From positions 12,643 through 76,642 of the forward strand of contig JABWCR010000006.1 of assembly GCA_013359125.1 (NCBI GenBank): a stretch of DNA of 64,000 nucleotides, given 5' to 3'. Source of the DNA: Armatimonadota bacterium (GTDB taxonomy: Bacteria; Armatimonadota; Fimbriimonadia; Fimbriimonadales; GBS-DC). The notes under the pieces are model-generated. The model had not been told where the DNA came from and searched no databases. It worked only from the letters and a program-made list of their open reading frames with translations. Positions 5,515 through 50,857 of this stretch are shown here, piece by piece (the stretch's first letter is position 1; each line of letters begins with the position of its first letter). Position numbers and translations under genes: made by a program.

Positions 5515-6972
5515 CTACTGTACCGGGCCATAGAGCGCATACTCGCCTCCTTCGCGAACAAGAGGCGCGACGATTTGGGGTTTGCGACCCTTGGTGAGGC
5601 AGTAACCGCCGTTGTTTAGGAGCGCCAACGCCTCTTCCAAAGTCTCGCAGGGAACGGCTCGGCCCGATACATAGAAATCGAGACTTGGAAGGCCCGGCTT
5701 CACGTCGAACACTCCGAGCTCTGCGGCAGGCGGAACGAAGCGGGCCAACTCTCTGGGAGCGGCCAGAAATCGGGCATCGTAGGCTGTTAATCCGACATGG
5801 AAACCGAAGCCAGCGATTGCGAGCATCACGGTTGCTGTCGCCGTTCGAGAAATTGCGAATCGGACGTATGGAAGCGCCGCCAGAAGCGCAATCCACGGCG
5901 ACTGAAGGAAAACAGCCAGGCCGACAGAGAGAAAGACCCAAAGCAGTCCCATGGCCAATTGTCCATAAACTGCCACATCGGATGAGAATCGAGCGTTTCG
6001 CGCCAAACAAGCCCCGATCAAGAGCGCGAGGGCCGGCGTCGTTGGCAAGATGTAATGAGGCAGTTTGGTGCCGCTTATGGTGAAGAGCGCGAAGACGATG
6101 AGCGCCCATCGCCACAGGAACTGTTCGACCGGGTTTGACGGCTGTCGCCACAAGGCGCCCAGTTTGTCCGCCCAGGGCGCCATTCCGAGAAGAAGGACGA
6201 CCGGGTAGAACGGCAGGCCGACCAAGAAATTGGGCGGCGCATGCGCCTTGTCGCCCCCTGCCAAACGGGACAGATTTTGTTTGACGATGAACTCGTTGAA
6301 GAAGTCTCCTCCGTGTTGCGCGTAGACGGCGAAATACCAAGGCGCCGCGGTCGCGATCGCTGTTAGGAGGGCGGCGATCGCGTATCGAAATTGGAATCCG
6401 TTGGATCGGAGCAACGGCAGCGAGGCTAAAATCAAAACGCCGATCAGAAAGAGCGCCATTGGGCCTTTCATCAAGGTCGCGGCGCCCGTTGCAATTCCCA
6501 AGGGAACGCACCAAAACGGGTTCTTGGCGGTCTCCCATAGCGATATCAGCCCTATCAGAAAAAAAAGGACGAGCGCCATGTCGGTCAGCGCCAGACGACC
6601 TAAGACGAAGACCAGAGGCGAGGACAAGAACACGAGGGCGGCGAACTGCCCCGCGCCGGGCGAGAGTCGCCTTTCGCCCCAGGCCCAAAGAAGTATCGCA
6701 ATGAGGCCAAAGGACAGGATAGAGGGCAATCTTGCGGCGGCTTCGGACGCTCCGAGCAACTTGATGCTAACGGCCATCAACCAATAAAGACCCGCAGGCT
6801 TTTCAAACCAGGGCTCGCCATAGAGCCTGGGCGTTATCCAATCGCCGGACCTCGCCATGGCGGCCGATACGGAGGCATAAAACCCTTCGTCAAGGTCGGT
6901 CAGGCCGAACGATGCCGCGTCCCAAAGGGCAAAACCGAGCGCAACCGCGAGCAGGGCGGCCAGTCGGCTCAA
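5515..6972 (-). CDS. GT39/GT83-type (ArnT/PMT-like) membrane glycosyltransferase
   Basis: 485 aa, TTG start in a TTGA overlap with the upstream stop. Many TM helices. First-loop DLDEGFY (DE motif) and EKPAGLYW are typical of ArnT/PMT-family enzymes. Confidence 0.8.
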   Translation of the reverse strand: MSRLAALLAVALGFALWDAASFGLTDLDEGFYASVSAAMARSGDWITPRLYGEPWFEKPAGLYWLMAVSIKLLGASEAAARLPSILSFGLIAILLWAWGERRLSPGAGQFAALVFLSSPLVFVLGRLALTDMALVLFFLIGLISLWETAKNPFWCVPLGIATGAATLMKGPMALFLIGVLILASLPLLRSNGFQFRYAIAALLTAIATAAPWYFAVYAQHGGDFFNEFIVKQNLSRLAGGDKAHAPPNFLVGLPFYPVVLLLGMAPWADKLGALWRQPSNPVEQFLWRWALIVFALFTISGTKLPHYILPTTPALALLIGACLARNARFSSDVAVYGQLAMGLLWVFLSVGLAVFLQSPWIALLAALPYVRFAISRTATATVMLAIAGFGFHVGLTAYDARFLAAPRELARFVPPAAELGVFDVKPGLPSLDFYVSGRAVPCETLEEALALLNNGGYCLTKGRKPQIVAPLVREGGEYALYGPVQ

Positions 6973-7343
6973 CGGTACCAGCCCTGCTCGATCTCTTGAA
7001 GCTGAGCCTCGGTCATGCCAAAATGGTGGCCGATCTCGTGCAAGAGCGTTTCTCTGATTTGGCGTCGGACCTCAGTGCGCGTTCGGCAGATTCTTTGGAT
7101 GTTGAGTTGATAGAGGTAGATGTGCGCGGGGTAGGGCATCGGGTCGAAGACGGACTGGCTAGTCCTGGGCGCGCCGACATAGAGGCCGAGCAAGGTCTTT
7201 TTTCGATGTCGTCCGGCCTCTTCGCCCGGTTCGTCCTCCACAACGATCGTAACGTTGTGGAGCTTCTGGCGAAACTCGCGAGGAATCTTGCGGTACTCCC
7301 ACCTGGCCCACTGTTCGAACTCCTCGCGAGAGACCTCAACCAT
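6969..7343 (-). CDS. small zincin-like metallopeptidase (DUF1025/Zincin_1-like)
   Basis: 124 aa with the HEIGHHFG zinc-binding motif near the C-terminus. Starts 3 nt after the PafA-like stop. Confidence 0.7.
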   Translation of the reverse strand: MVEVSREEFEQWARWEYRKIPREFRQKLHNVTIVVEDEPGEEAGRHRKKTLLGLYVGAPRTSQSVFDPMPYPAHIYLYQLNIQRICRTRTEVRRQIRETLLHEIGHHFGMTEAQLQEIEQGWYR

Positions 7344-7346
7344 GCG

Positions 7347-8822
7347 TTAGAGCCATGTCAAGAAGCGCGAGACTTCCTTTGAGTACGATCCGAACGGATC
7401 GCGCAGGTCGATCTGGCGCATACGGTCGACATAGACCATGTCCCAATCAACATAGTACTTGGACGGACGGGATTCGCAGAGTTTCTTGACGATCGTCGCT
7501 CGAGCGCCTGCTCGGGTGTTGGTCGGCGCCTGTTCTGTAGCGGTCTCGATCCGCTCGTCAGTCACTACTCGCTTGACGGCGCCCATCTCTTCTAAAGCAT
7601 GGTAAAGGCCCTGATCGGGATTGATATTGTGGTACTCGAGATCGATGCTGTGGAGCGAATCGTCGTCCCAATCGACGCCCGCATCTTCCATATACTCCCG
7701 AAGAATGTTCTGTTTGATGACCCAATCGATACGATCGTCTAACTGTTCCGGATCGGTCTCCAACAGGTTGAGCACATAATCCCATTCGGTCAGCACCCAA
7801 TCGGTCTCTGCGTCCCGACCGGCGAAGCGCTTTTGCGCCAATGCCAGGTAGGCGCGCTGAAGATCGATGGCCGAGATGGAGTCGCCATCGATCAAGTGCA
7901 CGATCCATTTCCGCGTTTCGTCGCGCGATATGTGCCGCATGGCGTTCAGCGGGTCTTGAATGCGCAGGTAGCTGGGCAATGCGCGCGCCTCCATCAAATC
8001 GAGTACCAGGCAGGTTGCGCCAATCTTGAGCGCGAACGCGTACTCGCTCATATTGCCTTCGCCATACAGAAGGTGCAGCCGCTGGTAGTTGCTGGAGCCA
8101 TAGACGCTGTCCCACTTTGGGTTGATGATGGCCCGATTGAAGCGCACGCGGGAGGCGGTAACGCGAACGATGTGATCGGCTCGCTGGGAGAGTTGGAACT
8201 TGACCGTCGGATCCGGCAACACGTTGTAGACTTGCGAGACCCAGATAAAGTCTATCGGATGCTGCGCCATGTCTCGCAGGGAGGGCAATGTGTTGGAGTG
8301 CTCCAGAATGTGGCCGCCCACTCGCCCGGACCCGCCGTATATCTGCCGCGTGATCAAGAAGGGCAGGATCAGGTTAAACGCATCGGCCGGATACCGCTCG
8401 TCAGCACGAATCAAGTAGTTCTCGTGACAGCCGAACGTATGTCCGCCAAAGTGATCGACGTTGTTGTTGTAGAAGGAGACTTTATCGTCCCATCCCATTT
8501 CCCGAAGGATGTTCACAATGATCCTTTGTCCCGCCTTTTCGTGCGCGACCAAGTCGAACAGGCTGGCGCACTCGGCGGTTGCGAACTCGAGGTGGCTTCC
8601 GACCGCGTCGATGTAGAGGCGCGATCCGTTTTTTAGGAATCCGCCGCTTCGGGCGGGCTCGAACGCTTCGTCTCGGGCGGTCAGGTCGATCAGGCCCAAT
8701 CCGGCTTTGTAGAATGCGTGGTTTTTGACTGCTTCGACGACGGTTTCGGCGCCCCCGAGGGAATCGTCCCGAATCAGGCAGCCAAACTCGGTCTCGATGC
8801 CGAACACGCGTCGGCCGAGCAT
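7347..8822 (-). CDS. pafA: Pup-ligase-family protein, PafA-like (modifier ligase)
   Basis: N-terminus MLGRRVFGIETEFG, then RLYIDAVGSHLEFATAEC and GCHENYL blocks as in PafA. Occupies the position after prcA. An alternative ATG at 8870 would overlap prcA by 35 nt. Confidence 0.8.
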   Translation of the reverse strand: MLGRRVFGIETEFGCLIRDDSLGGAETVVEAVKNHAFYKAGLGLIDLTARDEAFEPARSGGFLKNGSRLYIDAVGSHLEFATAECASLFDLVAHEKAGQRIIVNILREMGWDDKVSFYNNNVDHFGGHTFGCHENYLIRADERYPADAFNLILPFLITRQIYGGSGRVGGHILEHSNTLPSLRDMAQHPIDFIWVSQVYNVLPDPTVKFQLSQRADHIVRVTASRVRFNRAIINPKWDSVYGSSNYQRLHLLYGEGNMSEYAFALKIGATCLVLDLMEARALPSYLRIQDPLNAMRHISRDETRKWIVHLIDGDSISAIDLQRAYLALAQKRFAGRDAETDWVLTEWDYVLNLLETDPEQLDDRIDWVIKQNILREYMEDAGVDWDDDSLHSIDLEYHNINPDQGLYHALEEMGAVKRVVTDERIETATEQAPTNTRAGARATIVKKLCESRPSKYYVDWDMVYVDRMRQIDLRDPFGSYSKEVSRFLTWL

Positions 8823-8835
8823 GGATTCGCCGCTC

Positions 8836-9570
8836 TTAAAGAGTCCTGAGATGCCTTTCAACGGTTTCATGATCGATTCGTCGGAAGCGGTTTTCTCTAT
8901 GGGTTCGGCGTTCGAGGATAGCGGCCTCGATCTCGCCTTGTTCTATCGCGGTTTTTAGCGCGGATATGGCTTGATCGTCGGTCGGTTCCTCTTCCAACTC
9001 GATGGAGGCTTTTGCGGCGCCCCAAGCCAAGAGACAGGACGGCAGAGCCTCGTCGATCGTGCCGCCGTGCTTTAGGCGGCTGGTTGCGGCCTCCTCGGCC
9101 TTGTCGTCGCCTGCGACGACTGCTCGGTTCTTTTGGGGCGCATAGTCCCCGTCATAGCCCAAAGTGAAGAACTTATCCTCCTCCAATTGGTCGGCGACCT
9201 CGGCAAAGAGGCCTCTTGCGACTAACGGCGAGATGGTCGGGTCTCCAAATGCGCGTTTGACCGCAGGGCTTAACGCGACGCCTACCACTCTCTGGATCGT
9301 AACGTCGTCCGGGCTGCGGGCAAAGCCTTCTTGATGGGCAAAATCGATCGCGGCGATCCTCAGAGCCTCGACATCCGATTGAGCCCCCAACGCGCCATAG
9401 ACCAACTTGTCGTAGATCTCATAGATTTTGGGAGATCGACGGCGCACGCTCATTATCAAGACCCCTTCGGCGCACGAGGCGGCCACGACCGGGCTGCCGT
9501 CGCGCAGGCGCAGGCGCACAAACTCCTCTCTTCGGTTGACGCTTTCTTGCCAGTCGTAAGGCGTTATCAC
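8836..9570 (-). CDS. prcA: 20S proteasome alpha subunit
   Basis: 244 aa immediately downstream of the beta subunit (1-nt gap). Ntn-hydrolase-fold-like sequence without an N-terminal catalytic Thr. Confidence 0.8.
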   Translation of the reverse strand: MITPYDWQESVNRREEFVRLRLRDGSPVVAASCAEGVLIMSVRRRSPKIYEIYDKLVYGALGAQSDVEALRIAAIDFAHQEGFARSPDDVTIQRVVGVALSPAVKRAFGDPTISPLVARGLFAEVADQLEEDKFFTLGYDGDYAPQKNRAVVAGDDKAEEAATSRLKHGGTIDEALPSCLLAWGAAKASIELEEEPTDDQAISALKTAIEQGEIEAAILERRTHRENRFRRIDHETVERHLRTL

Positions 9571-9571
9571 T

Positions 9572-10327
9572 TTATTTGCCTAATTTGGAAATAGCGGCTC
9601 GAAGCTCTTCGTCGGACAACGAGACAACGCCTTCCTCGGATACGCGCTTTGCGGTCGGTAGCACCTTGTCGAATCCGCCTGTGGCCGAATCGAGGTCGGA
9701 GGCAATGTCCAGCAGCGTCAAGGCGTCTTTGAGAACGTCGTCGTAGGGTCTTTCTTCGAACTTGCCGCGGGTCTTTTCGATATATTCGAACGCTCCTCGA
9801 ATTCGTTCCGATCCGGATCCCGCGGCCGTATAGGAATCGCTTTCGAATCGCGCGCCAGAGGCGTCGTAAAAGTAGATTCTCGCTCGCGATTCTGCCAGAT
9901 CATAGGCCGTAAGGATTGGCACGAAAAGACCAATTCCGCTCATTGCATTGGGGAGATTGGCCGACAGAGCGCGCGAGATCTCTTGCAGTTTGCCGTCCAG
10001 ACTCATCGGTTGAAGCTGGCTGCGCGAAAAGTACTTGAACGCATGGCGCAGGTAGCGCGCCGACTCGATTGCTCGACCGTAGGCGCCTGCCAAGGCTATG
10101 AGCGTATAGTCGTCCAGGGCGATGATCTTTTCTGCTTTGTCGTACATGATGGCGGCAGCCGCCGTCGCTCTGCGATCGCCCAGGTTGAGCGCGCCGCCTT
10201 TATACTTAACGGCCAATACGGTAGTGCCGTGCGTCTCCAAGCCTGCCGCAGCATTCGGATGCGCTACTATCGAGAAGGGCAAGATGCCGTTCTCGGCCAA
10301 AAGCGCCGCAAAGTCGCCTTTGCTCAT
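9572..10327 (-). CDS. prcB: 20S proteasome beta subunit (with propeptide)
   Basis: A 34-aa propeptide ending ...ETHG is followed by TTVLAVKY. Counting from that Thr, Asp17 (LGDRR) and Lys33 (DKAEK) are in place. Confidence 0.85.
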   Translation of the reverse strand: MSKGDFAALLAENGILPFSIVAHPNAAAGLETHGTTVLAVKYKGGALNLGDRRATAAAAIMYDKAEKIIALDDYTLIALAGAYGRAIESARYLRHAFKYFSRSQLQPMSLDGKLQEISRALSANLPNAMSGIGLFVPILTAYDLAESRARIYFYDASGARFESDSYTAAGSGSERIRGAFEYIEKTRGKFEERPYDDVLKDALTLLDIASDLDSATGGFDKVLPTAKRVSEEGVVSLSDEELRAAISKLGK

Positions 10328-10331
10328 GCGG

Positions 10332-10517
10332 TTACTCGCCGCTCCTTTGGCGGTACTTTTTGGCCTGTTCCGGGTCTACCTTTCTCATGCGTTTGAGAAG
10401 TTCGTTCGCGCCCGGACGGTCTACTTTGGGCGACTTTGGTCCGTCCTCGTCGCCGTGCTTGGTGGACCGCTCCTGCGGGATCGGCTTTCTCAATCGGTCT
10501 TCTGTTCTAATGATCAT
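10332..10517 (-). CDS. Pup-like small protein modifier, UBact-type (C-terminal RSGE)
   Basis: 61 aa, charged and low-complexity, ending LLKRMRKVDPEQAKKYRQRSGE-stop. Start ATG overlaps the Dop-like stop (ATGA). The stop is 4 nt before the prcB start. Confidence 0.72.
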   Translation of the reverse strand: MIIRTEDRLRKPIPQERSTKHGDEDGPKSPKVDRPGANELLKRMRKVDPEQAKKYRQRSGE

Positions 10518-12040
10518 AATTGGCTCCTTAGCGCATCTGCGATCGCGTCAGCGAAGGCTGTCGGGTCGTCAATTCCCTGCAATGTCTCCAGCAGTTTGGT
10601 CAAATCGGGGTCGACCAATCTCTCTAAGTTGATCGTTCGCTCGCCCCTGTCCGTCTTTAATCGAAGTCGTCCCCAACTTATCCATACGATGCGGTCGGCA
10701 AAGCGTTGCACGGCCAAGCCTCTTATCTTGGCGCGGGTCGCGTCCATTGCCTCTGAGATGGATGACTGGGCGGTCTCGTCAGAGATCAGCGCCAGCAACT
10801 GGCCTTGGTCTACCAAAGCCTGATAAAGGCTCTCGGTTGGATTGAGTAGATGGTACTCCATATCGAGGGCGGCGATCATAGGATCGGACAGTTCGACTCC
10901 GTCCGAATCCATGTAGAGCCTGAGCAATCCCAGTTTGGCCGCCCAGTCCGCTCGGTCGGATAGTCTCATCGGGTCGTCGTCCAGCAAGTCGAGGCATCGC
11001 TCCCACTCCGCCATTACCCAGTCCGTCTCTTTGTCTTGACCTTCCAACAGTTTGGCGGCTTCGGAGAGATAGGCGCGTTGCACGTCGGTTGCTCGAATCT
11101 TCTGTCCATTGCTCAGTTCCACCGTCCAAGCGAACTGCTGGTCTCGCGAAATCTCTTTGATCGCTCGGACAGGGTCTCTTATCTCTATCTTGGGCTGCCA
11201 TCCGTGCTCGATCAGGTCGAGCGCGATCCGGGTTGTCCCGACTTTCATCGCGGTGGCCCAATGGGATCGGTTGGCATCGCCACAGATGACATGGAGCCGA
11301 CGATATTGGGCTGCGTCCGCATGAGGCTCGTCGCGCGTGTTGAAGATGGGGCGCCGATAGAGGGTATCGACGCTGGCGATCTCGCTGATGAAGTCGGCGC
11401 GCTGAGAGATTTGGAAGGCCGCTTTAGGCCTCCTCTCACCTTCAATGATCGCTTTGCCTGCGCCTGTAAAAATCTGCCTGGTTGATAGAAAAGGGATGAG
11501 TCCCGCCAAGAGCCGATCGAACTCTACGTCTCGGCGGCAGAGGTAACTTTCGTGGCAGCCATAACTTGCGCCATGGTAGTCCGTGTTGTTCTTGTAAACC
11601 CTTACCTCGGCTCCGACGTTTTTTGAATAGGTTTGCGCGCACTGCTGCACGATCTGTTCGCCCGCCAGGTCGGCGGCAACAAGCGAGAGAAGCCCGACCG
11701 TTTCGGGCGTGGCATATTCGGGATGGCCATGATCGTTGTACAGTCTGCCGCCGTTTGATAAGACGCGGTCGGCGACGGCTTGTTGGCCAAAGGCGCGCAC
11801 CGTGCTGGATTGCTCGAAGCGATCGTCGTTCGGGTCGGTCTGAAGCCGATCGGCCCGAAAGCCCCGCATGTCTCTTCGCGGGTCTTCTAAGGAGTAGTTC
11901 CACTTTCGCACTCCGTCCAAGGGGCACGAGCGCACGATTTCCGCAGAAGCCTCCATCAGTTGAGAGACCGGAAGCCCCTCGACCGTAAAGCCGTATTCCG
12001 TCTCAAGCCCGACTAATCGACGCACACCGAGATTATACAT
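10514..12040 (-). CDS. dop: Pup-ligase-family protein, Dop-like (deamidase/de-conjugase)
   Basis: RRLVGLETEYG, WNYSLEDPRRDMRGF and RLYNDHGHPEYATPE resemble Dop blocks rather than PafA. Occupies the position before the modifier gene. ATG 12040 gives an 8-nt overlap with the upstream gene. The track start at 12091 is GTG with a 59-nt overlap. Confidence 0.8.
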   Translation of the reverse strand: MYNLGVRRLVGLETEYGFTVEGLPVSQLMEASAEIVRSCPLDGVRKWNYSLEDPRRDMRGFRADRLQTDPNDDRFEQSSTVRAFGQQAVADRVLSNGGRLYNDHGHPEYATPETVGLLSLVAADLAGEQIVQQCAQTYSKNVGAEVRVYKNNTDYHGASYGCHESYLCRRDVEFDRLLAGLIPFLSTRQIFTGAGKAIIEGERRPKAAFQISQRADFISEIASVDTLYRRPIFNTRDEPHADAAQYRRLHVICGDANRSHWATAMKVGTTRIALDLIEHGWQPKIEIRDPVRAIKEISRDQQFAWTVELSNGQKIRATDVQRAYLSEAAKLLEGQDKETDWVMAEWERCLDLLDDDPMRLSDRADWAAKLGLLRLYMDSDGVELSDPMIAALDMEYHLLNPTESLYQALVDQGQLLALISDETAQSSISEAMDATRAKIRGLAVQRFADRIVWISWGRLRLKTDRGERTINLERLVDPDLTKLLETLQGIDDPTAFADAIADALRSQL

Positions 12041-12545
12041 CTGACAGGCGTTTAGTAAGCCACTCTTCGACTTCGGCAAGCGAATCGGCACGGTCTGCGA
12101 CTTCCGGCAAAGCGTCCGCCCAGCCGAAAAGAAGCAACGGCTTTTGCATTCGGAGCGCCAGAGCGATCTCGTTAAGCGTGCCGTCGCTCCCCGGCAGGGC
12201 GATGATCAGGTCGCTGGTTCTGACATTGATCCAGTTTCGCGTTGCTGCATCGGGAGCGAGCGGGTCGAAAGCGCCGAGAGGCGCAACGACCGGGATTTCG
12301 ATCCATTGGTTAGGGTAACCGGGCGGCAATCGATGGTCGGCGCCTATGGTGGGCAAGATGCCGATGCTGGCGCCTTTCCTTTCAGGCTCTTCGACAAAGG
12401 CCTTGGCGACCGAAGCCATAACGCCCTGTCCACCGCCTGTAAGGAGATTCAGCCCTCGCCTGGCGAGCAGTCTGCCCAGAGGTTGCGCCAAGTGCGGGCG
12501 GTCTTCTGTGCCCGACCCCATCACGCCTACTATAGGACGCTTCAT
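12033..12545 (-). CDS. TIGR00725/LOG-like (SLOG, Rossmann) family protein
   Basis: 170 aa. IVGVMGSG ... LLTGGGQGVM ... LPGSDGTLNE resembles the LOG PGGxGTxxE motif. Confidence 0.7.
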   Translation of the reverse strand: MKRPIVGVMGSGTEDRPHLAQPLGRLLARRGLNLLTGGGQGVMASVAKAFVEEPERKGASIGILPTIGADHRLPPGYPNQWIEIPVVAPLGAFDPLAPDAATRNWINVRTSDLIIALPGSDGTLNEIALALRMQKPLLLFGWADALPEVADRADSLAEVEEWLTKRLSDV

Positions 12546-23954: not shown

Positions 23955-25166
23955 CTACTTGATGTTGCCCATCAGGCTGTAAATGGGGGAAATAACGGAC
24001 ATGGCGAAAACGCCGATCACGACGCCGAGCGCCAGCACCATGATCGGCTCTAGGATCGACGTCAGCCCTTTCAGGCGTTGTTGCACCTCGTCGTCGTAGA
24101 ACTCCACAACCTCGCCCAACATTTCGGGCAGCGCGCCTGTTTTTTCGCCCGCGGCGACCAGTTGCAGCACGATGGTCGGAAACTCGTTCGTCTCCTTCAT
24201 CGAATGGGCGAGAGGCAGGCCGCTTTCGGCGTCCATCTTGACTTTCGTCAACGCCCGCTCCATTCTTCGGTCGCCCGACGTTTCGGCTGCGATCTCGATC
24301 GACCGCCCCAAATTGACGCCCGATGCAATCAGCGTCTGGAGGGCCGACAGCGACCGGGTCAGCACCACCTTGCGCGTCAAATCGCCTACCATCGGCAGTC
24401 GCGCAATCCAATAGCCGACCGGCTCTCTAAACTTTGGCAGCTGCCACAATCCGTACAATGCGATCAAGACGACTAGCGGAGACGCCAGAGCGATAATCTT
24501 GTATCGGTCCCCCAATGTGCCAAGGAAAACAAGCGCCTGGGTGGTTACTGGAAGATCGACTTTCATCTGCTTGAACATCTCGGCAAACTTCGGCATGATA
24601 AAAGCGATCATGTAGGCAAAGGCGAACATCGTGGCGATCAGGATCGATGCGGGATACATCATTGCCGACTTGACCCGTCGTTGAAGCCCGAGCGCCTCGT
24701 TCAGGTAGTCTGCGGCGCGCTTCAAGATCGTATCCAGATTGCCGCCGGTTTCCGCGGCCTGCACCAGGTTGACGTAAAGCTTAGGAAACACGGTCGGACG
24801 ACGGCGCATCGCTTCGGACAGGGATCTTCCCTCTTCGACCTCGGCCTTTACTTGATCGAGCGACTCCTTGAGAACGCCGGGCTTCATGTGCTCGCCCAAT
24901 GCTCGCAGCGACTCCAGAATCGGCACTCCTGCGCGCACCATGACTGCGAACTCTCGGCTGAAGGCCACGAGTTCGTCCATCCGCGCGCGCTTTAAGGATT
25001 TGAGGCGTTGGGCTATCGGAGCATCGTTTCCGCCCGATTTAAGCATCATGACGAAGCAACCGTCGCGATGGAGGGCCTCTAAGGCAGCCTGCTGCGAAGC
25101 CGCCTCAAGGCTCACTTTTCTTTGCTCGCCGCTCTGCGTTCGAACTCTTCCGACAAATGTAGGCAT
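23955..25166 (-). CDS. pilC: type IV pilus/T2SS platform protein (GspF/PilC family)
   Basis: 403 aa with the duplicated GspF-type architecture and 3 TM segments. Follows the ATPase gene after a 6-nt gap. Confidence 0.85.
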   Translation of the reverse strand: MPTFVGRVRTQSGEQRKVSLEAASQQAALEALHRDGCFVMMLKSGGNDAPIAQRLKSLKRARMDELVAFSREFAVMVRAGVPILESLRALGEHMKPGVLKESLDQVKAEVEEGRSLSEAMRRRPTVFPKLYVNLVQAAETGGNLDTILKRAADYLNEALGLQRRVKSAMMYPASILIATMFAFAYMIAFIMPKFAEMFKQMKVDLPVTTQALVFLGTLGDRYKIIALASPLVVLIALYGLWQLPKFREPVGYWIARLPMVGDLTRKVVLTRSLSALQTLIASGVNLGRSIEIAAETSGDRRMERALTKVKMDAESGLPLAHSMKETNEFPTIVLQLVAAGEKTGALPEMLGEVVEFYDDEVQQRLKGLTSILEPIMVLALGVVIGVFAMSVISPIYSLMGNIK

Positions 25167-25172
25167 TGTTTT

Positions 25173-26852
25173 TTAGGCCGCCAACCTTATCGGAGGGGCG
25201 GATTCTTCGGCTTCCATCTCTTCCAAATCGTTGGCCACGACGCGGAAGAGTTCCTCGATCGAAGTTCTGCCTTCGATCACGTGTCTCGCCGCGTCTTGAT
25301 AAAGAGGAACCATCCCGCCTTCTGTGGCGCATTGACGGATGACCGATGTCGATTCGCGCCGCATAACCGCCTTCCTCACGGCATCGTCCATCAGCAGGCA
25401 TTCCAAAATGACGGTTCGGCCTCGATAGCCTGAAAAATTGCACCGATGACAGCCGACAGCGCCAAAAGTACGGACGCCGTCGAACGACACGCCCAACCGT
25501 GCTGCCAAAGCCGGGTCGGGCGCGGCATCCGTCTTACAATCGGGGCACAACAGCCTAATAAGCCTTTGCGAGCAAACACCGACCAGCGCCGAAGCCAACA
25601 AGAACGGCTCTATGCCCATCTCCAGCAGGCGACCGGGCGCGCCCGATGCCTCGTTGGCATGAAGGGTCGAAAACACCATGTGGCCCGTGAGAGCGGCTTC
25701 GATGGCCACTTCCGCCGTTTCTTGGTCTCGAATCTCGCCCACCAGCACCACATCGGGGTCTTGGCGCAAGATCGAACGCAGGCCGTTGGCGAACGTCATC
25801 CCAGCCTTGACGTTCACGCTGCCTTGGGTAATGCCCGACAATTGGTACTCGACCGGGTCCTCGATGGTGATGATGTTGCGCTCCGCGCTGTTCAGATGGC
25901 TTAGGCAGCCGTACAGCGTCGTCGTCTTTCCGCTTCCGGTCGGGCCGCAAACCAGCATCATGCCGTAGGGTCGCTCCACAACCGTTTGAACGCGCTGAAG
26001 CGCCATCGGATGCAGGCCGAGTTTTTCGAGTTCGAATACCAGGGAGGTCTTGTCCAAGATTCGCATGACGACCTTCTCGCCGAAGATCGAGGGATAGGTC
26101 GAGACGCGCAGATCGTAGGCCTTGCCAGCGACCGAGTAGGCAATGCGTCCGTCTTGGGGCGATCGTTTTTCGGCAATATCCATCTCTGCCAAAATCTTAA
26201 TTCGGGCGACCACGCCGTCGTGCAGTTCTTTCGGGACTTCGGACGATTCTCGCAGCGCTCCGTCCACTCGGACGCGCACCCGCGAGCGGTCGGCCATCGG
26301 TTCGATATGAATGTCGCTCGACCGATCGGCGATGGCGCGGTTGAGAAGCGCCTCCACCAAGCGGACGACAGAAGCATCTTCTTCCGAATCGCTTTGGATT
26401 CGCTCCACAACGGTGCGGACGTCCTCGTCCAGCCCATAGTAGCGCATGAGGGCGTCGTGTATCTGAGTCCGCGAGGCGACCGTTACAATGACTTCTCTCC
26501 CCGTCGCCGATCGCAGATCGTCCAGCGCCATGATGTCTGCCGGATCCGACATGGCCACGACGATCTGATTGCCTTGGACTGCGACCGGCATAGCCTTGCC
26601 TCTCACCGCAACATCGCGCGGCACCGCCGCGATCGCGTCTGCAGAGGGATGCGTCGATTGAAAATCGACAAAGGGCACGTTGTAGACGGCGCTGAGCGCC
26701 TTCGCCCGATCGCTCTCCGTGATCGCGCCGACGCGAATCAGGTAATCCTCTATCTGCTCGTTGGCATCCTCCCGCTTGGCCAAAAGCTCGCCCAAGCGAC
26801 CGGCATCGATCATGCCTTCGTCAATCAGGACGTCGGTCAATCGGCGAGTCAT
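25173..26852 (-). CDS. pilB: type IV pilus/T2SS assembly ATPase (GspE/PilB family)
   Basis: N-terminal GSPII_E_N-like domain, Walker A GPTGSGKTT, tetracysteine CPDC...CHRC. Confidence 0.9.
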   Translation of the reverse strand: MTRRLTDVLIDEGMIDAGRLGELLAKREDANEQIEDYLIRVGAITESDRAKALSAVYNVPFVDFQSTHPSADAIAAVPRDVAVRGKAMPVAVQGNQIVVAMSDPADIMALDDLRSATGREVIVTVASRTQIHDALMRYYGLDEDVRTVVERIQSDSEEDASVVRLVEALLNRAIADRSSDIHIEPMADRSRVRVRVDGALRESSEVPKELHDGVVARIKILAEMDIAEKRSPQDGRIAYSVAGKAYDLRVSTYPSIFGEKVVMRILDKTSLVFELEKLGLHPMALQRVQTVVERPYGMMLVCGPTGSGKTTTLYGCLSHLNSAERNIITIEDPVEYQLSGITQGSVNVKAGMTFANGLRSILRQDPDVVLVGEIRDQETAEVAIEAALTGHMVFSTLHANEASGAPGRLLEMGIEPFLLASALVGVCSQRLIRLLCPDCKTDAAPDPALAARLGVSFDGVRTFGAVGCHRCNFSGYRGRTVILECLLMDDAVRKAVMRRESTSVIRQCATEGGMVPLYQDAARHVIEGRTSIEELFRVVANDLEEMEAEESAPPIRLAA

Positions 26853-28171
26853 TGGCCTTCCTCTTCGTCGGAGATGATCGTTGGCGACAGGAAGATCAGA
26901 AGCTCGTTCTGGCTCTTGGTCGCTCGCCGGTGTTTGAACAGTTCGCCCAAAACGGGTATTTGGGATAGAATCGGCACGGACTGCATGGATCGGGTCTCCT
27001 CTTCGCGTATCAATCCGCCCAAAGCAATCTGCGATCCGCTTTTGACCCTGATCTTTGTTCTGACTTCGCGGGTTGATATTTGCGGGTAGGTGCTTTCGCC
27101 AATGCGCAGGAAGCCGGTTACGACCGAGACCTGAGGATAGATGTCGAGCGTAACATTGCCGTCCTCATCGGCCCAAGCCTGAACCCTCAGCACGACGCCG
27201 ACCTCTTGCTCTCGCACGTCGAAGAGCGGCGTGCCGGCGGTCGTTGTTCCCGTTACAACAGGATAGAGCAGACGATCGCCGATCAGAATGTGCCCGGTTT
27301 CGCCGTTCATGACCATCACGTTCGGGTGAGCCAGGAGCTTCGCGTTGCCTTTCTGCTCCATCGCTTTGAGAGTGGCTTCGATGCTGAGAGGGCTTCGCCA
27401 AAACGGGCCTTGGTGACTGGGCTTCAGCAGAGGATCGTTCACATAAGAATCGCGCTCGGAAGGGCGGACGATCTCTTGCCAGGTCGATTTGCTCCAGTCC
27501 CACAAGATTCCCATCTCGCCCAGCGAGGTCCGGTTGACGTCCGTTACGATCACCTCGATCTTGACCTGAACCGGTTTCTTGTCGATCGTCTTTGCGGTCT
27601 CAACGGCTTCGGCGACCATGTCTGCCGGGCCTCGGATGATGATCTCTCGACCGGCCGCGGGCGCCGCGGCTTCGGTAGAAGGCGTCGCAGATTCGCTTTC
27701 AGAATCCATCGATCCAGACATCTGCGGCAATGAGACGACGGCGCTTGGGATGATGGTCAGTTCGGGAAAGAGGCTCTTAAGAGCGCCTATGAGCGATGCG
27801 CTCGTTACGAACTTGGAGGAATAGACGCTCAGTGCGATTGTGGCCGGTCTGGCGGGTACGGCCGGTTCGTAGGCCTTCAGGTTCTCGGGTGTAGCGACTA
27901 CATAAGCGCCTTCGACTTTGGCATAGGCCAAGCCATGCGGCCTTGTAAGGAGTTCTAGCGCCTGTTCGACTGTAACGCCTTTGAGGGTTGCCGTAGCCCG
28001 ATAGTCTGACGGAACGTTCGAGATAATGTTCGTGCCCGACTGCTGGCCGATCATCTGGAGCGCGACCGCTAAAGGCATTGAATCGAACTCTAGGTCGAGC
28101 TTTCGCTCGTCTTTGAGCGAAGTTGAAAAGGTCAAAAAGATCGAGAATGCGATCGTCCATATCCAGCTCAT
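26849..28171 (-). CDS. pilQ: secretin (PilQ/GspD family), short form
   Basis: 440 aa. Signal/anchor, STN/secretin-N-like region, C-terminal secretin block GGLIREEETRSMQSVPILSQIPVLGELF. ATGA overlaps at both ends. Confidence 0.85.
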   Translation of the reverse strand: MSWIWTIAFSIFLTFSTSLKDERKLDLEFDSMPLAVALQMIGQQSGTNIISNVPSDYRATATLKGVTVEQALELLTRPHGLAYAKVEGAYVVATPENLKAYEPAVPARPATIALSVYSSKFVTSASLIGALKSLFPELTIIPSAVVSLPQMSGSMDSESESATPSTEAAAPAAGREIIIRGPADMVAEAVETAKTIDKKPVQVKIEVIVTDVNRTSLGEMGILWDWSKSTWQEIVRPSERDSYVNDPLLKPSHQGPFWRSPLSIEATLKAMEQKGNAKLLAHPNVMVMNGETGHILIGDRLLYPVVTGTTTAGTPLFDVREQEVGVVLRVQAWADEDGNVTLDIYPQVSVVTGFLRIGESTYPQISTREVRTKIRVKSGSQIALGGLIREEETRSMQSVPILSQIPVLGELFKHRRATKSQNELLIFLSPTIISDEEEGQ

Positions 28172-28779
28172 GGCTCTACTCCTTGGGGCGCGGAACCCAG
28201 TTTAAGGCGGTACTGCTTTCCTTCGTGCTCTACCGTGATTTCGTACTTTTGACGGTCGATGACCCGCCATTCCGAGCTCGGCTTCGAGTCGGCGATGAAG
28301 ACCTTCCCGTTCACTTCGATGGCCGCTCTTTCTTCGCCGTTCGCGCCGCGCACGATTCCTCGAAGCAACGGCTTAGGCGGCTCGGGCAACGGCTCTGGTT
28401 CAGTTCTTGTCTCTGCGGGCTTCTCCGGCTCAGGTTGTCCCGTTGGTCTCATGCTCCATCCGTCAGGCGGCGAGTCGAAAGAGAGCGGCCGAAGCGGCGT
28501 TTCCGGCTGCGGATTCGGTTCGGCTCTCGTTTCGGTTCCTGTCCTAAAGGGCTCTTCTCGTTCGGCCGGCGCTTGATCCAATCTCTGTCGAAGCCGCTCG
28601 TAGTAATCTGCAGGCGGCCCCGCATCGCTGGTGGGCGCCGTTTCATCGACTATTGGAGCGACCGACGTTGTAACGGGGCCGCCTGCTGCCTTCTTGGGAG
28701 AGAGCATGGGAACCGCAACGCTCAACAGCATAACGACCGCTCCTGAGATCAAGAAGACCTCGCGTTTGGGCTTCTTCAC
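28168..28779 (-). CDS. Pro/Glu-rich membrane-anchored protein in the PilP position
   Basis: GTG 28779 in a GTGA overlap with the upstream stop. One TM (VFLISGAVVMLLSVAV), a long PE-rich linker and a small C-terminal beta domain. Assigned by position only. Confidence 0.35.
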   Translation of the reverse strand: MKKPKREVFLISGAVVMLLSVAVPMLSPKKAAGGPVTTSVAPIVDETAPTSDAGPPADYYERLRQRLDQAPAEREEPFRTGTETRAEPNPQPETPLRPLSFDSPPDGWSMRPTGQPEPEKPAETRTEPEPLPEPPKPLLRGIVRGANGEERAAIEVNGKVFIADSKPSSEWRVIDRQKYEITVEHEGKQYRLKLGSAPQGVEP

Positions 28780-29357
28780 GCGCCGCCCCCAGAATCCGAC
28801 GCAGGCATCAGGGCTTCGAACTCTACGATCATCTGAGGCTGTGCGGAGTCGCCCTTGGTCGATATGTTTATGCCATTGGGCGCGACCACAAGCGCGTCTC
28901 TGCGGATATCGTCGATCCATCTCGCAACGCCCCGAGAAGGACCTTCGATGCGAAACCGCAAGAGCTTCTTCTTCCAGATCGAATCCGGGTCGTCGCCGGG
29001 GGCAGAAGAAACGTCGACGCCAAGCGGCCTTAAGTTGTGGCGCCTGGCTAGCGCGGACATGCGCGAAATGACGTGCGAAACGGGATTGGTCGCTTCTTCC
29101 AATTTGGAGGCAATCGCGAAGAGCTCTGCATTCGCGCTCGCTCTGCCCGCTAGCGAATCTTGCTCCGATCGGACATGCTCTATCTGGCCCTTAAGAGCCT
29201 CGATGTCGGAGACGTATCGATTCTTGATCGTCAGAAGAGCACCCGCGACTATAGTCGATATAGAAACGGCCGATATGGCGGCCCACTTGAGCCTTGACGA
29301 CCGGGACTCGGCGAACGCGAGCGTCGCCCAAAACCGTCTGGCGGACAGCGGCCTCAT
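28776..29357 (-). CDS. pilO: PilO-like pilus assembly protein
   Basis: 193 aa. N-terminal TM, coiled-coil segment, C-terminal alpha/beta domain. Lies between the PilN-like gene and the secretin. Confidence 0.5.
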   Translation of the reverse strand: MRPLSARRFWATLAFAESRSSRLKWAAISAVSISTIVAGALLTIKNRYVSDIEALKGQIEHVRSEQDSLAGRASANAELFAIASKLEEATNPVSHVISRMSALARRHNLRPLGVDVSSAPGDDPDSIWKKKLLRFRIEGPSRGVARWIDDIRRDALVVAPNGINISTKGDSAQPQMIVEFEALMPASDSGGGA

Positions 29358-29908
29358 TCTGTCTCCTCCGCACTTGCCTGGCTTGGAGCGATCAGCCTAA
29401 TTTCAAAACGGGAGGCGCCGTCCGTTTCTCCTCTGTTGACCGACGATGGCGTCACCTCGGTGAAGAGTCCCACAGTGCGCAGTCTTTCGCTATAGGCTTT
29501 GATCGCTTCAAAGTCCTGTGCGCCGCCGCGAAGGTTGACCGACCAACCGCTTTCGTGCTCAAACTGCGCCTGCATCTCTTCGAGCCAGGCTTGCAACGGC
29601 ACGGTCTTGCCAGTCGCCATGACGGCGAGCGAGAACTCTTGGCACCGCGCCCTGGCGTTTTCAAGGTCGGCCGCCTCGAATGGCGGCATCGATTCTTCGG
29701 GCGCATCGATCAACGCTTTCAAGATGGTCTCTTGCCTCGCTTTCTCGACGCGCAGATCGGGAATCAACAAGGCAAAGGCCGCCAACGAAAGGATGGACAG
29801 GGCGCTCCCGCTCACAAAGGCGACGAAAAGCCCCTTGATCTTGAGCAGTTCGCGCTGGCGTCGAGCACGCCACTCCATTGCCAGGTTGACCGGTCTCATT
29901 GCGCTCAT
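29354..29908 (-). CDS. pilN: PilN-like pilus assembly protein
   Basis: ATG 29908 in an ATGA overlap with the pilM stop. N-terminal MRPVNL motif (INLLP-like), one TM, periplasmic domain. Confidence 0.5.
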   Translation of the reverse strand: MSAMRPVNLAMEWRARRQRELLKIKGLFVAFVSGSALSILSLAAFALLIPDLRVEKARQETILKALIDAPEESMPPFEAADLENARARCQEFSLAVMATGKTVPLQAWLEEMQAQFEHESGWSVNLRGGAQDFEAIKAYSERLRTVGLFTEVTPSSVNRGETDGASRFEIRLIAPSQASAEETE

Positions 29909-30966
29909 GCGGCCAGGGCCTCCTGACAAGCGATGATCGCGGCTCCCAATGCAGGACAATATGGATTCAGGTCGTCTTCTTTTAGCTTCTCGGGCCAATC
30001 GAACGCGGCCTCTAGATCGCCGGGCAAGCAGGTAACCCCCAGCGAAGCCGAGCAATAGCGCTCCAATCCCCTGATCGAGGCGCCCTCGCCCGTCAAAACA
30101 AAGGCGTCCAGCAATCCCAAGTAACTGCCGTCTGGGAATCTCGATCTCTGAAAGTCGGCCAATCTTCTCATCTCTGCAGTCAGTTCGTGCAGAAACTGCA
30201 GCGCCGAGATGGGCGGCAGCCCTAATTCTGTAGGGAACTGCAGCAGGCCGGCGTCATCGATCGTTGCCTCTCGCAATAGGGCGACGGCTTCGTTCGTGTC
30301 GGCCCCCACGAAGCGACCGATCGTATCGATGAGTTCGTCAGTGCCATGGTTGAGGGTGCGGGTGAACTCCAATCTCGTTTCGCGCGCCACAGTCATTTCT
30401 ATATATTCCGCCTGGAGATTGATGGCGGCTGTGGCTTTGCCTTTCCACAGAATGCTGTCCGTCGCCTGGTTTCTCGTAAGCGCCGCCACAACGGCATCCG
30501 ATTCGGGCGCGGCGACGACGGGGACAAGGCCGGCCAACAGCGCTGCATCCAAGCGCCCATCGATGACCGACCTTGGCGCAGCCACCAAGCGCGCGGGCAG
30601 CGGCACGTTCTCGTCTCCCGTCTCGTATGCTTCGGGCGGCACGGAGAAGCGATAGGTCATCGGTTCGGCGGCGTTTGGCAGTCTTTTGGGGCCTTCGAAC
30701 GGGGCAGCAGCGTTGAGTTCGTCCAGGCTGATTCTTGGAGCGTCGACCCACTTGTTGAGGGCGCGCGGAACGGCGATCGCGACCGGTCCGTTGGCCCGAA
30801 CGCGCCGGGCCAACTGACCGATTGTCGCCGCGACCTGCTTTAGATTGACGACAACTCCGCCCGCGACCGAGCCAGGAGGCGACAGAGTCCGGCATGCCGC
30901 TTTAACCCTGCTTTCGGCGAGCGCGACCATCGTTATATATCGAGAATTGATTTCCAAGCCAACCAT
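29905..30966 (-). CDS. pilM: PilM-like actin-fold pilus assembly protein
   Basis: 353 aa. N-terminal VGLEINSRYITMV, typical of PilM/FtsA-like proteins. First gene of the cluster. Confidence 0.7.
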   Translation of the reverse strand: MVGLEINSRYITMVALAESRVKAACRTLSPPGSVAGGVVVNLKQVAATIGQLARRVRANGPVAIAVPRALNKWVDAPRISLDELNAAAPFEGPKRLPNAAEPMTYRFSVPPEAYETGDENVPLPARLVAAPRSVIDGRLDAALLAGLVPVVAAPESDAVVAALTRNQATDSILWKGKATAAINLQAEYIEMTVARETRLEFTRTLNHGTDELIDTIGRFVGADTNEAVALLREATIDDAGLLQFPTELGLPPISALQFLHELTAEMRRLADFQRSRFPDGSYLGLLDAFVLTGEGASIRGLERYCSASLGVTCLPGDLEAAFDWPEKLKEDDLNPYCPALGAAIIACQEALAA

Positions 30967-40300: not shown

Positions 40301-40960
40301 TCAATTGGACGTAAACATTTCGGCGTGCCTGTCCGGATCGAACGATTTGATCCGAGGCTGTCTCGACATCTCTCTGAGTTCATCCAGAAGCAGGCGCAAT
40401 CGCTCGCTGGTATCCCGCGTCTCCAAGAGCCGTTGCTTGAAGCCGAGGTCCGAAGGCAAGCTGGATGCTACCGCAAACGAGAGCAACACCGGATCTTCGG
40501 GGAACTCTATCCGCCTCATCGCCAAACCTTCTTGCTCGAGCATCGAGCGAAGATGGCCTTCAAAGGCGAGAGTTACCTCTTCCATTAGCATATAGGCGTC
40601 GTTGTCGTGCTGCCATGGCCTTTCGCGCCAGGGCTCGACGCCGGCCTGTAAATAGGCTTCCTCCCGGTCGAAGTCGCAAATGTGAAACCGTTCGACTCCG
40701 ATCGCGGTTAGATAGAGCCGTCCATCGTCCAAGCGCTGGAGATTGGTAATTCGAGCCAGCGTGCCGATAGAATGCGGCGAGGCCTCCGGATCGATTTCCG
40801 TGCCTTCGCGCAGCAGCGCGACGCCAAATCCCTCGCCTGTTTCCAAGCAATGGTCCACCATCTTCAAGTAGCGGGGTTCGAAGATGTGCAGGGGCAGTAC
40901 GGCATAGGGAAACAGGACAGCATTGAGGGGGAAGATGGGAATGCGGAGGCCTGTTTCCAT
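40301..40960 (-). CDS. LON N-terminal (substrate-binding) domain-only protein
   Basis: 219 aa. IPIFPLNAVLFPYAVLPLHIFEPRYLKMV is the classic Lon N-domain opening. No AAA+ or protease domain. Confidence 0.8.
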   Translation of the reverse strand: METGLRIPIFPLNAVLFPYAVLPLHIFEPRYLKMVDHCLETGEGFGVALLREGTEIDPEASPHSIGTLARITNLQRLDDGRLYLTAIGVERFHICDFDREEAYLQAGVEPWRERPWQHDNDAYMLMEEVTLAFEGHLRSMLEQEGLAMRRIEFPEDPVLLSFAVASSLPSDLGFKQRLLETRDTSERLRLLLDELREMSRQPRIKSFDPDRHAEMFTSN

Positions 40961-49029: not shown

Positions 49030-50724
49030 TTAGCACCCGGCTCCGAAGTTTGAGAGCACGATGGCCAAGTCGTCATCGTCTATCCTTCCGTCGGTGTTCA
49101 GATCGGCGGGATGCAACGGGCTGTTTAGGCCAAAAGCGGCCAGCACGGCCGCGAGGTCCGTGTCGTCCACGCAGCCGTTTAGGTCCACATCGCCTGGACG
49201 GACGGAATACCGCCACTCTTGAATCCAGGCCGACCAGTTTCCACCGGTCGCTCGCTGGCCAACGCCCCAGACGGTGCGCATGTCGGTGGGATCAAGCCCG
49301 ACGCCGAAGTAATCGCCCCAACGGTTGCCGCCGTACGCAGAGTTGCCCAGCGCGACTGGCGTAGCCGATTCTGGGTTTGGCTGGCCGTTGCGCCATGCCG
49401 AAACGGCGACCTCGGCAAATGTAGCCGGGCTGTCGGACGAACGCCCCATGATGAACAGGATGTCCTTGTCGCGATTGACCTGCATGGCTGGGAAGTAGTA
49501 GTCCATCCCTGGCGCGCCATAAGTTACGGTTGTAACGCTGGGCGTTTGACCCACGGCTACAGTCATTCTATAGATGCGGGCCGCGGCGCGACTGCCCAGA
49601 CCGTCTCCCCAATCTCGAGCAACGCTGTGGCCAGTCGTCATCACGCCGTGAGCATAGGTCGCATTGAGCAATCTGGAATCGATGTTGCTGATTCGGGTGG
49701 TCGTACCTGGCTGGCGGCCGCCTGGAGACGAAGCATAGTTCGGGATCGCTACGTTGTTGCTCTCGAATGTCGGCTCGGTTCCATTGGCCCAGAACTGCGA
49801 CGGGTTGATGATCTTGCGCACGCGCATCTGATTGCCGCCGCCGACCGCGCACAAGAAGAGCGCTTCTTGTCCGTCGGGCATGGTGAACATCTCGGCAGGG
49901 TGCAAGGTTCCAAGGCCCGAGTAGAACACGTCGTACCTTGTGCTGGCTTGACCGTTGTAGATCTGCGCTTTGTTCAGCAACGTTATCTGGGAGCCCAAGA
50001 ACCCACCGCCGAACTGGTACATATTGCCGTGCAGCGCGAGCACATCCTTGTTGAAGCCTAGTTTTTCATAATCCGGCCACTGGGCGATGTCTTGGCCAGC
50101 TCGCAACCTTGCATTGATCCGATAGACCCACCAGCCGTCCATCGGATTGCCCGTGCGCGAAACGGCCAGTTCCCAGGAACTCTGAGGACTTTGCTGACGG
50201 GCGAACAGAACCAAGAAGCGGTCCCACCATGGATCGTAAGCGCACCAGGAGTCGAAGATAAAGTCATTGCTGTTAAAGAGGGTGTTGGCATCCACCGAGG
50301 AGAGCTGTTGACCATTCTTCGTGTAGATGACGATGTCGTCGTTGTTCACGCCGATAACATGGTTGCGGCCAACCGCCATGTCGGGGTCGGGCGGCGTCCA
50401 TTCGTTGGGCGCCGGACCGGCAAAGCCTCGGCCCAGGGTATAGGCCTGGATCGTGCCGCCGAAAACGCTCTCATCGATGGCGTATGGCCCTTCGCTATCG
50501 GTACCGGGCGCGTCGTCCTTACCCTTTGGCTTGTGCACGTAGCGCTGTGCAAACTTGGGAAGTTCCAGCCGGTTATCGGCCAGGTGAGCCTGAGAAATGT
50601 TCTTCATTGAGCGGAAAACAGGGGTAACGATCTCGCTCGGGCCGTGTATGATCGTCTCGTCCTGAGCAAATACCATGGTCGATACGGCTAGCAACACGGC
50701 GCAACTCCATAATCGCTTCTGCAT
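49030..50724 (-). CDS. large secreted protein (beta-propeller-like) with C-terminal dockerin-like module
   Basis: AGGAGG before ATG 50724. Signal peptide MQKRLWSCAVLLAVSTMVFAQ. About 480-aa unassigned domain followed by the dockerin-like tail. Confidence 0.55.
   Translation of the reverse strand: MQKRLWSCAVLLAVSTMVFAQDETIIHGPSEIVTPVFRSMKNISQAHLADNRLELPKFAQRYVHKPKGKDDAPGTDSEGPYAIDESVFGGTIQAYTLGRGFAGPAPNEWTPPDPDMAVGRNHVIGVNNDDIVIYTKNGQQLSSVDANTLFNSNDFIFDSWCAYDPWWDRFLVLFARQQSPQSSWELAVSRTGNPMDGWWVYRINARLRAGQDIAQWPDYEKLGFNKDVLALHGNMYQFGGGFLGSQITLLNKAQIYNGQASTRYDVFYSGLGTLHPAEMFTMPDGQEALFLCAVGGGNQMRVRKIINPSQFWANGTEPTFESNNVAIPNYASSPGGRQPGTTTRISNIDSRLLNATYAHGVMTTGHSVARDWGDGLGSRAAARIYRMTVAVGQTPSVTTVTYGAPGMDYYFPAMQVNRDKDILFIMGRSSDSPATFAEVAVSAWRNGQPNPESATPVALGNSAYGGNRWGDYFGVGLDPTDMRTVWGVGQRATGGNWSAWIQEWRYSVRPGDVDLNGCVDDTDLAAVLAAFGLNSPLHPADLNTDGRIDDDDLAIVLSNFGAGC
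49033..49200 (-). other. dockerin-like double Ca-binding module, copy 3
   Basis: RPGDVDLNGCVDDTDLAAVLAAFGLNSPLHPADLNTDGRIDDDDLAIVLSNFGAGC. Confidence 0.55.
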
Positions 50725-50857
50725 TTGTCTCCTCCTAACTCTAACTGCCAATCCTGGGCGCGACCGGCTTGGGGCCAAGAACGCCTCGATTGTATTATAA
50801 CACGGATAGGGCGGCAGGAGACCCGACAAAGGGCATAGAATCAAGTCCCGTCCGCCT

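Follow-up and report, generated by a model that had tools for sequence, protein, structure and literature searches.

The stretch of DNA analysed here, 64 kb in its entirety and hereafter called the window, comes from a metagenome-assembled genome (MAG) of a deep-branching member of the Armatimonadota, and all positions given throughout refer to it. Between 7347 and 12040-12091 its minus strand carries five tightly packed, intact open reading frames (ORFs) that encode a Dop-like enzyme, a Pup-like modifier of the UBact family, the two subunits of a 20S proteasome and a PafA-like ligase. Inspection of the ORF translations bore out this gene order, which an earlier note on the same DNA had proposed from the letters alone. 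We conclude that the five genes very probably form a chromosomal dop-UBact-prcB-prcA-pafA operon of a UBact/20S proteasome system, in a lineage where the unfoldase gene mpa lies outside the operon and most likely elsewhere in the genome. The genes of the cluster are:

10514-12040 (ATG start, 508 amino acids) or 10514-12091 (GTG start, 525 amino acids), minus strand: dop-like gene, homologue of the UBact depupylase/deamidase, PF03136

10332-10517, minus strand: UBact, a Pup-like modifier of 61 amino acids, PF20513 and NF033388

9572-10327, minus strand: prcB, 20S proteasome beta subunit, 251 amino acids, PF00227 and TIGR03690

8836-9570 (GTG start, 244 amino acids), or 8836-9519 (227 amino acids) according to gene callers, minus strand: prcA, putative 20S proteasome alpha subunit, TIGR03691

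7347-8822 (491 amino acids, according to gene callers), in an ORF that extends to 8870 (507 amino acids), minus strand: pafA-like gene, homologue of the UBact-protein ligase, PF03136

The spacing of these genes is very close: the stop codon of dop and the start codon of UBact overlap in the tetranucleotide ATGA, an AAGGAG lies upstream of the UBact ATG, and the gap between UBact and prcB measures 4 nucleotides. Alignments with homologues begin only at residue 19-25 of the 525-amino-acid form, which makes the ATG at 12040 the favoured start of dop; for the pafA-like gene, the start chosen by gene callers at 8822 gives a protein beginning MLGRRVFGIETEFG.

The small ORF ends in ...LLKRMRKVDPEQAKKYRQRSGE, its last residues being KKYRQRSGE. 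In searches with profile hidden Markov models it scored 81.8 bits with PF20513 (curated cut-off 27.8 bits) and 81.6 bits with the equivalog model NF033388 (cut-off 35), both matches reaching the last residue, and these scores place it in the UBact family with an R-S-G-E terminus, as the earlier note had suggested. For comparison we used a survey of 80 species-representative loci (labels of the form L0xx), which were pulled in by the window Dop protein. The C-terminal motif YRQR[ST]G[EQ] was kept in all 70 of these loci that had a detectable UBact, the termini being RSGE in 43, RSGQ in 21 and RTGE in 6, so the ORF and its terminus are conserved, a point on which the note had made its assignment depend. 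The helix region that precedes the C-terminus was equally conserved with or without a linked mpa.

Both enzymes that flank the modifier and the proteasome genes belong to the Pup ligase family, and they can be told apart by sequence. PF03136 (Pup_ligase) matched the Dop-like protein with 500 bits (E 6e-150) and the PafA-like protein with 419 bits (E 3e-125). Among the NCBIfam equivalog models the upstream paralogue scored best with TIGR03688 for Dop (425.4 bits against 352 for PafA), and the downstream one with TIGR03686 for PafA (319.5 bits against 276 for Dop), although each best score stayed under its cut-off of 492.3 and 551.3, respectively. Comparison with solved structures gave the same ranking, since the best match of the upstream protein was A. 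cellulolyticus Dop 4b0r (329 bits against 221 for PafA) and that of the downstream protein was C. glutamicum PafA 4b0t (229 bits against 211 for Dop). The motifs by which the earlier note had separated the two paralogues are present in the translations, WNYSLEDPRRDMRGF and HGHPEYATPE in the upstream and GIETEFG and GSHLEFATAEC in the downstream one. Moreover, the Dop-specific loop, which the note had proposed to look for, distinguishes them: the Dop-like protein aligned over its full length with 4b0r/5lrt, including the Dop-loop region, whereas the PafA-like protein lacks this segment and is 31 residues shorter than its paralogue in the stretch before the catalytic Asp. In the Dop-like protein LYNDHGHPEY aligns with LYVDHAHPEY, so that D103 corresponds to D94, the catalytic Asp of A. 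cellulolyticus Dop; in the PafA-like protein D72 aligns with the catalytic D64 of C. glutamicum PafA. We also aligned 80 Dop-like proteins, 30 PafA-like proteins and the two structural references. Both window paralogues retain every residue that never varies among 113 Dop/PafA sequences, GxETExG and the catalytic Asp among them, and neither shows the loss of ATP/Mg-binding residues that the note had considered as evidence against it.

The beta subunit of the proteasome is likewise recognizable. PrcB scored 82 bits with PF00227 (cut-off 22.4) and 134 bits with TIGR03690, below the cut-off of 191.9. Its residue 35 aligns with residue 1 of the mature beta chains 1q5q_H, 2fhg_H and 6ocw_H (Rhodococcus, M. 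tuberculosis), which gives a propeptide of 34 residues with Thr1 at residue 35, and direct counting in the translation placed Asp17 and Lys33 as well; the retention of the propeptide and of all three residues had been read correctly in the note. PrcA stays below the cut-offs of both models, with 69 bits for TIGR03691 (E 4e-19, cut-off 139) and 20.7 bits for PF00227 (cut-off 22.4). It matched M. tuberculosis PrcA with an E value of 5e-10 over residues 8-209, and the position of its gene is conserved across the related loci.

The cluster is not accompanied by two components known from actinobacteria, as had been pointed out before. We scanned 47 window ORFs with Pfam, namely all 19 of at least 400 amino acids and most of those between 150 and 400 amino acids that were free of a larger overlapping gene, and found among them no AAA+ protein of the Mpa/ARC/Cdc48 type and no WYL protein. 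PafB and PafC of the WYL type do not follow pafA; a Zincin_1 gene and then a PMT-type glycosyltransferase gene stand there instead. Since PafBC are known as regulators of actinobacteria, their absence here is expected. The scan showed two other proteins that we considered as substitute unfoldases and rejected, a ComM/YifB-type Mg-chelatase-like AAA+ protein (50858-52393), which nothing ties to the UBact system, and a protein of 219 amino acids that consists of the Lon N-domain, a substrate-binding domain, only (40301-40960) and likewise has no tie to it.

The lack of a linked mpa proved to be a property of the lineage. In about 30 of the 80 loci a gene for an AAA protein of about 585 amino acids with the sequence GPPGCGKT (Mpa-like) lies directly upstream of dop; among these loci are those of Chthonomonadales, other Armatimonadota, Poribacteria, Fraserbacteria and Nitrospira (for example L021, L043, L087 (Nitrospira), and also L091, L098 and L108). 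Independent look-ups showed the same canonical mpa-dop arrangement, with the Mpa domains PF17758, PF16450 and PF00004. The Fimbriimonadales-type loci nearest to the window, however, had no mpa within 10 kb wherever the flank was sufficient, and in a neighbour-joining tree of the surveyed Dop proteins the mpa-less loci fell into two clades and the branch of the window itself. Four of them, L014, L016 (bacterium HR15, BEHR01000001.1), L017 and L027, have the same five-gene order as the window; most of the others also lack pafA at the locus, and some retain, in the 10 kb around it, no more than dop-UBact or dop. Genomes named Fimbriimonadales and genomes of the JP3_11 type carry an orphan mpa whose surroundings contain neither a Pup_ligase nor a UBact nor a proteasome gene up to a distance of 10 kb, in one case on a contig of 3.04 Mb between nusA-ylxR and a HEAT/AhpC gene. 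Orphan and operon-linked Mpa score alike on TIGR03689 (447-455 bits), and the former are 68-70% identical to the latter. Since relatives keep a stand-alone mpa elsewhere, the window cluster is to be seen as a split operon and not as evidence of an unfoldase-free system. Substrate delivery, which the earlier note had called an open question for want of a nearby unfoldase, loses its special standing here, because the mpa-less locus is the rule in the nearest Fimbriimonadales-type lineages and an orphan mpa occurs in relatives.

In two homologue searches with Mpa queries (the Mpa of L021, and that of L033/P0165), for which the best 120 of about 8000 matches were listed, no Mpa was matched to the complete Fimbriimonadales genome AP024673.1, either among the listed matches or among the members of cluster P0294. 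P0145, P0175 and P0146 were considered as the Mpa of the window organism and rejected, as they come from other organisms and lie in canonical, linked clusters.

The survey also gave several observations on the UBact loci of other organisms. Unlike actinobacterial Mpa, whose tail is GQYL, UBact-type Mpa proteins (L021, L031, L033, L034, L043, L060, L087) end in -II, as -NII, -QII or -GII, or in -TVI, and these tails suggest that docking to the alpha ring of the 20S core relies on another motif. Two Fimbriimonadales-type loci with dop-UBact only, L049 and L052, have a full-length Lon gene (6542-9169 and 6778-9171, respectively) in divergent orientation just upstream of dop, and no proteasome gene was detected in their available flank. 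Otherwise canonical operons can contain an additional gene, of the Uma2 family (PF05685) between prcB and prcA in L091/L094 and with a CpXC domain (PF14353) between dop and UBact in L098-L101. In MAGs labelled Chloroflexota (L075-L086, L089), the gene directly after a Dop-like one encodes a second Pup-ligase paralogue, which is as distant from the window Dop as from the window PafA (about 250-270 bits to each). Searching these loci by phmmer with the window proteins revealed no UBact or proteasome gene, and the pair may represent a different modifier system.

By homology with pupylation, the following pathway can be proposed for the window system. The PafA-like ligase would use ATP to activate the side-chain carboxylate of the terminal Glu of UBact, through which the modifier is predicted to become joined to a lysine of the target protein. 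The Dop-like enzyme would remove the tag; because the terminus is already Glu, a deamidation step would be unnecessary, as in the actinobacteria that have PupE. UBact proteins ending in Gln are common among the relatives, so that the dual role of Dop appears to be retained across the family. An Mpa-type AAA+ ring, probably encoded elsewhere in the genome, would recognise UBact and unfold the tagged protein, and the 20S core of PrcA and PrcB would degrade it after maturation of the beta subunit by propeptide cleavage, which would expose Thr1.

Several findings weigh against such a split but complete system. Using tblastn, four UBact-type Mpa queries found no match in 83 kb of extended contig (the window plus 10 kb on each side, taken from the 113-kb JAPKFX010000010.1 of MAG GCA_026646355.1), which agrees with the Pfam scan and with the absence of an Mpa/ARC unfoldase from the window claimed earlier, and which also means that no mpa lies immediately beyond the boundary of the cluster, the one place where the note had thought it might have been overlooked. 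Nor was the window organism's own mpa found among the best 120 of about 8000 matches listed in the two Mpa searches. Dop, PafA, PrcB and PrcA all score under the actinobacterial NCBIfam equivalog cut-offs, so that functional equivalence rests on the conserved residues and not on these thresholds. The open-access literature searched contained no experimental study of UBact. Finally, the window Dop is only about 51% identical (49-53%) to the Fimbriimonadales-type Dops of L014, L016, L017, L027 and L037, which are 65-77% identical among themselves, whereas the window PafA reaches 72-73% identity with the clade of the HR15 type, PrcB 60-67% and UBact 61-68%. The nearest homologues of this Dop are 52-53% identical (53% for the best in the species-representative collection) and, where named, belong to Armatimonadota or Fimbriimonadales; it forms a long branch of its own in the Dop tree and differs at three near-invariant positions, having T in place of C after HPEYATPE, S in place of A and M in place of P. 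Since the invariant residues are all kept, the window Dop is probably active, and its accelerated divergence is a small oddity of the locus.

These findings could be explained if the lineage had truly lost Mpa and the UBact tag either fed the 20S core through another activator, be it a gate opener that needs no ATP or some other AAA+ protein, or served as a reversible, non-degradative modification. The failure to find an mpa in the 83 kb, or one attributable to the window organism among the listed matches, would fit such a loss, as would the progressive fragmentation of the operon in related clades, some of which are left with dop-UBact or dop within 10 kb, and the fast evolution of the window Dop. 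We nevertheless consider this loss unlikely, because related Fimbriimonadales-type genomes retain a well-conserved orphan mpa whose TIGR03689 score equals that of the linked form, and because the C-terminal half of the window UBact is as conserved as in Mpa-linked loci. Furthermore, absence from the listed matches means little when 120 of about 8000 were listed, and the MAG is a draft. If Mpa were indeed lost, a ligase and a deligase for UBact and a 20S core that are all intact, together with the fast-evolving Dop, would amount to a rewired system working with another activator or as a reversible, non-degradative tag, an outcome to which we assign a small probability. It is very improbable that we see here a relic in decay, or a cluster acquired horizontally in recent times without functional integration. 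The sub-threshold equivalog scores of four of its proteins, the PrcA score under the Pfam gathering score and the divergence of Dop could be taken as signs of decay, but low scores are common to all UBact-type systems, those with an operon-linked Mpa included. In addition, none of the five ORFs is disrupted and their translation is coupled, the family-invariant residues and the Thr1/Asp17/Lys33 triad are all kept, and the identical locus is present in many independent assemblies (Logan). The GC content of the cluster is the same as that of its surroundings, and its even course through the window, at about 0.58, gives no sign of a recent island; the closest homologues all come from Armatimonadota and not from Actinobacteria. 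Thus, an intact UBact/20S operon with its mpa at another place in the genome remains by far the most probable explanation of the locus.

With the UBact systems of Gram-negative bacteria the cluster shares a short modifier with the YRQR[ST]G[EQ] terminus encoded between a Dop-like gene and prcB-prcA, with a PafA-like gene following, but the canonical UBact locus starts with mpa directly upstream of dop, a gene that is missing from this place in the window and in its Fimbriimonadales-type relatives. The split loci L014, L016, L017 and L027 are identical to it in gene order and in having no mpa within 10 kb, and differ from it in that the SLOG and Zincin_1 flanking genes described below occur only in the window organism. 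With the actinobacterial Pup system (mpa, dop, pup, prcB, prcA, pafA, pafBC) it has in common the order dop-modifier-prcB-prcA-pafA, PF03136 enzymes that keep the catalytic Asp and the nucleotide-binding residues, a beta-subunit propeptide and, on the window side as judged from sequence, Thr1 chemistry, while the terminal Glu of the modifier is a likeness to the PupE species in particular. It departs from that system in having neither PafBC nor a linked Mpa, and in the RSGE end of its modifier, which matches UBact rather than Pup with its GGQ/GGE end.

UBact was reportedly described in 2017 in the phyla Nitrospirae, Verrucomicrobia, Armatimonadetes, Nitrospinae and Planctomycetes. As early as 2008, modifiers resembling Pup and linked to proteasomes had been reported from other phyla than Actinobacteria (PMC2588565), and Armatimonadetes are among the phyla listed with Dop/PafA homologues (PMC7947786). 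Given this literature and the curated Pfam and NCBIfam models of UBact, by which standard pipelines would name the window gene, the occurrence of the cassette outside Actinobacteria is not the novelty that the earlier note took it to be. Its gene identities, its assignment of Dop and PafA, its catalytic residues and the local lack of Mpa and PafBC stand, but the significance that it implied does not. The locus is a further example of an intact UBact-proteasome operon, contributed by an uncultured lineage of the Armatimonadota, and has little import beyond correct annotation. What may be of use in choosing a UBact model system is the split of the canonical mpa-dop-UBact-prcBA-pafA arrangement in Fimbriimonadales-type bacteria, where mpa and often pafA are relocated. 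Since UBact systems seem to be without experimental characterisation, an intact and compact cluster can reasonably supply the genes for reconstitution, although the window cluster is not special in this respect among the hundreds of UBact clusters available.

Two further genes adjoin the cluster:

6969-7343: Zincin_1 (PF06262) gene, starting 3 nucleotides past the pafA stop

12033-12545: SLOG cluster-4 (PF18306) gene, overlapping the start of dop by 8 nucleotides (ATG start) or 59 nucleotides (GTG start)

We considered the SLOG and Zincin_1 proteins as components of the system and rejected them, since in none of the 80 related loci do their genes stand next to the cluster; they seem to be chance neighbours within a long string of genes that all run in one direction. 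Elsewhere the window carries a type IV pilus or type II secretion-like gene cluster on the minus strand (23955-30966), which encodes T2SSF, T2SSE with MshEN, a secretin, PilN and PilM, as well as PEP-CTERM and dockerin-motif proteins (62702-63769 and 49030-50844). LpxK and a lipid A acyltransferase are also encoded on the extended contig, and their presence suggests that the host is a diderm.

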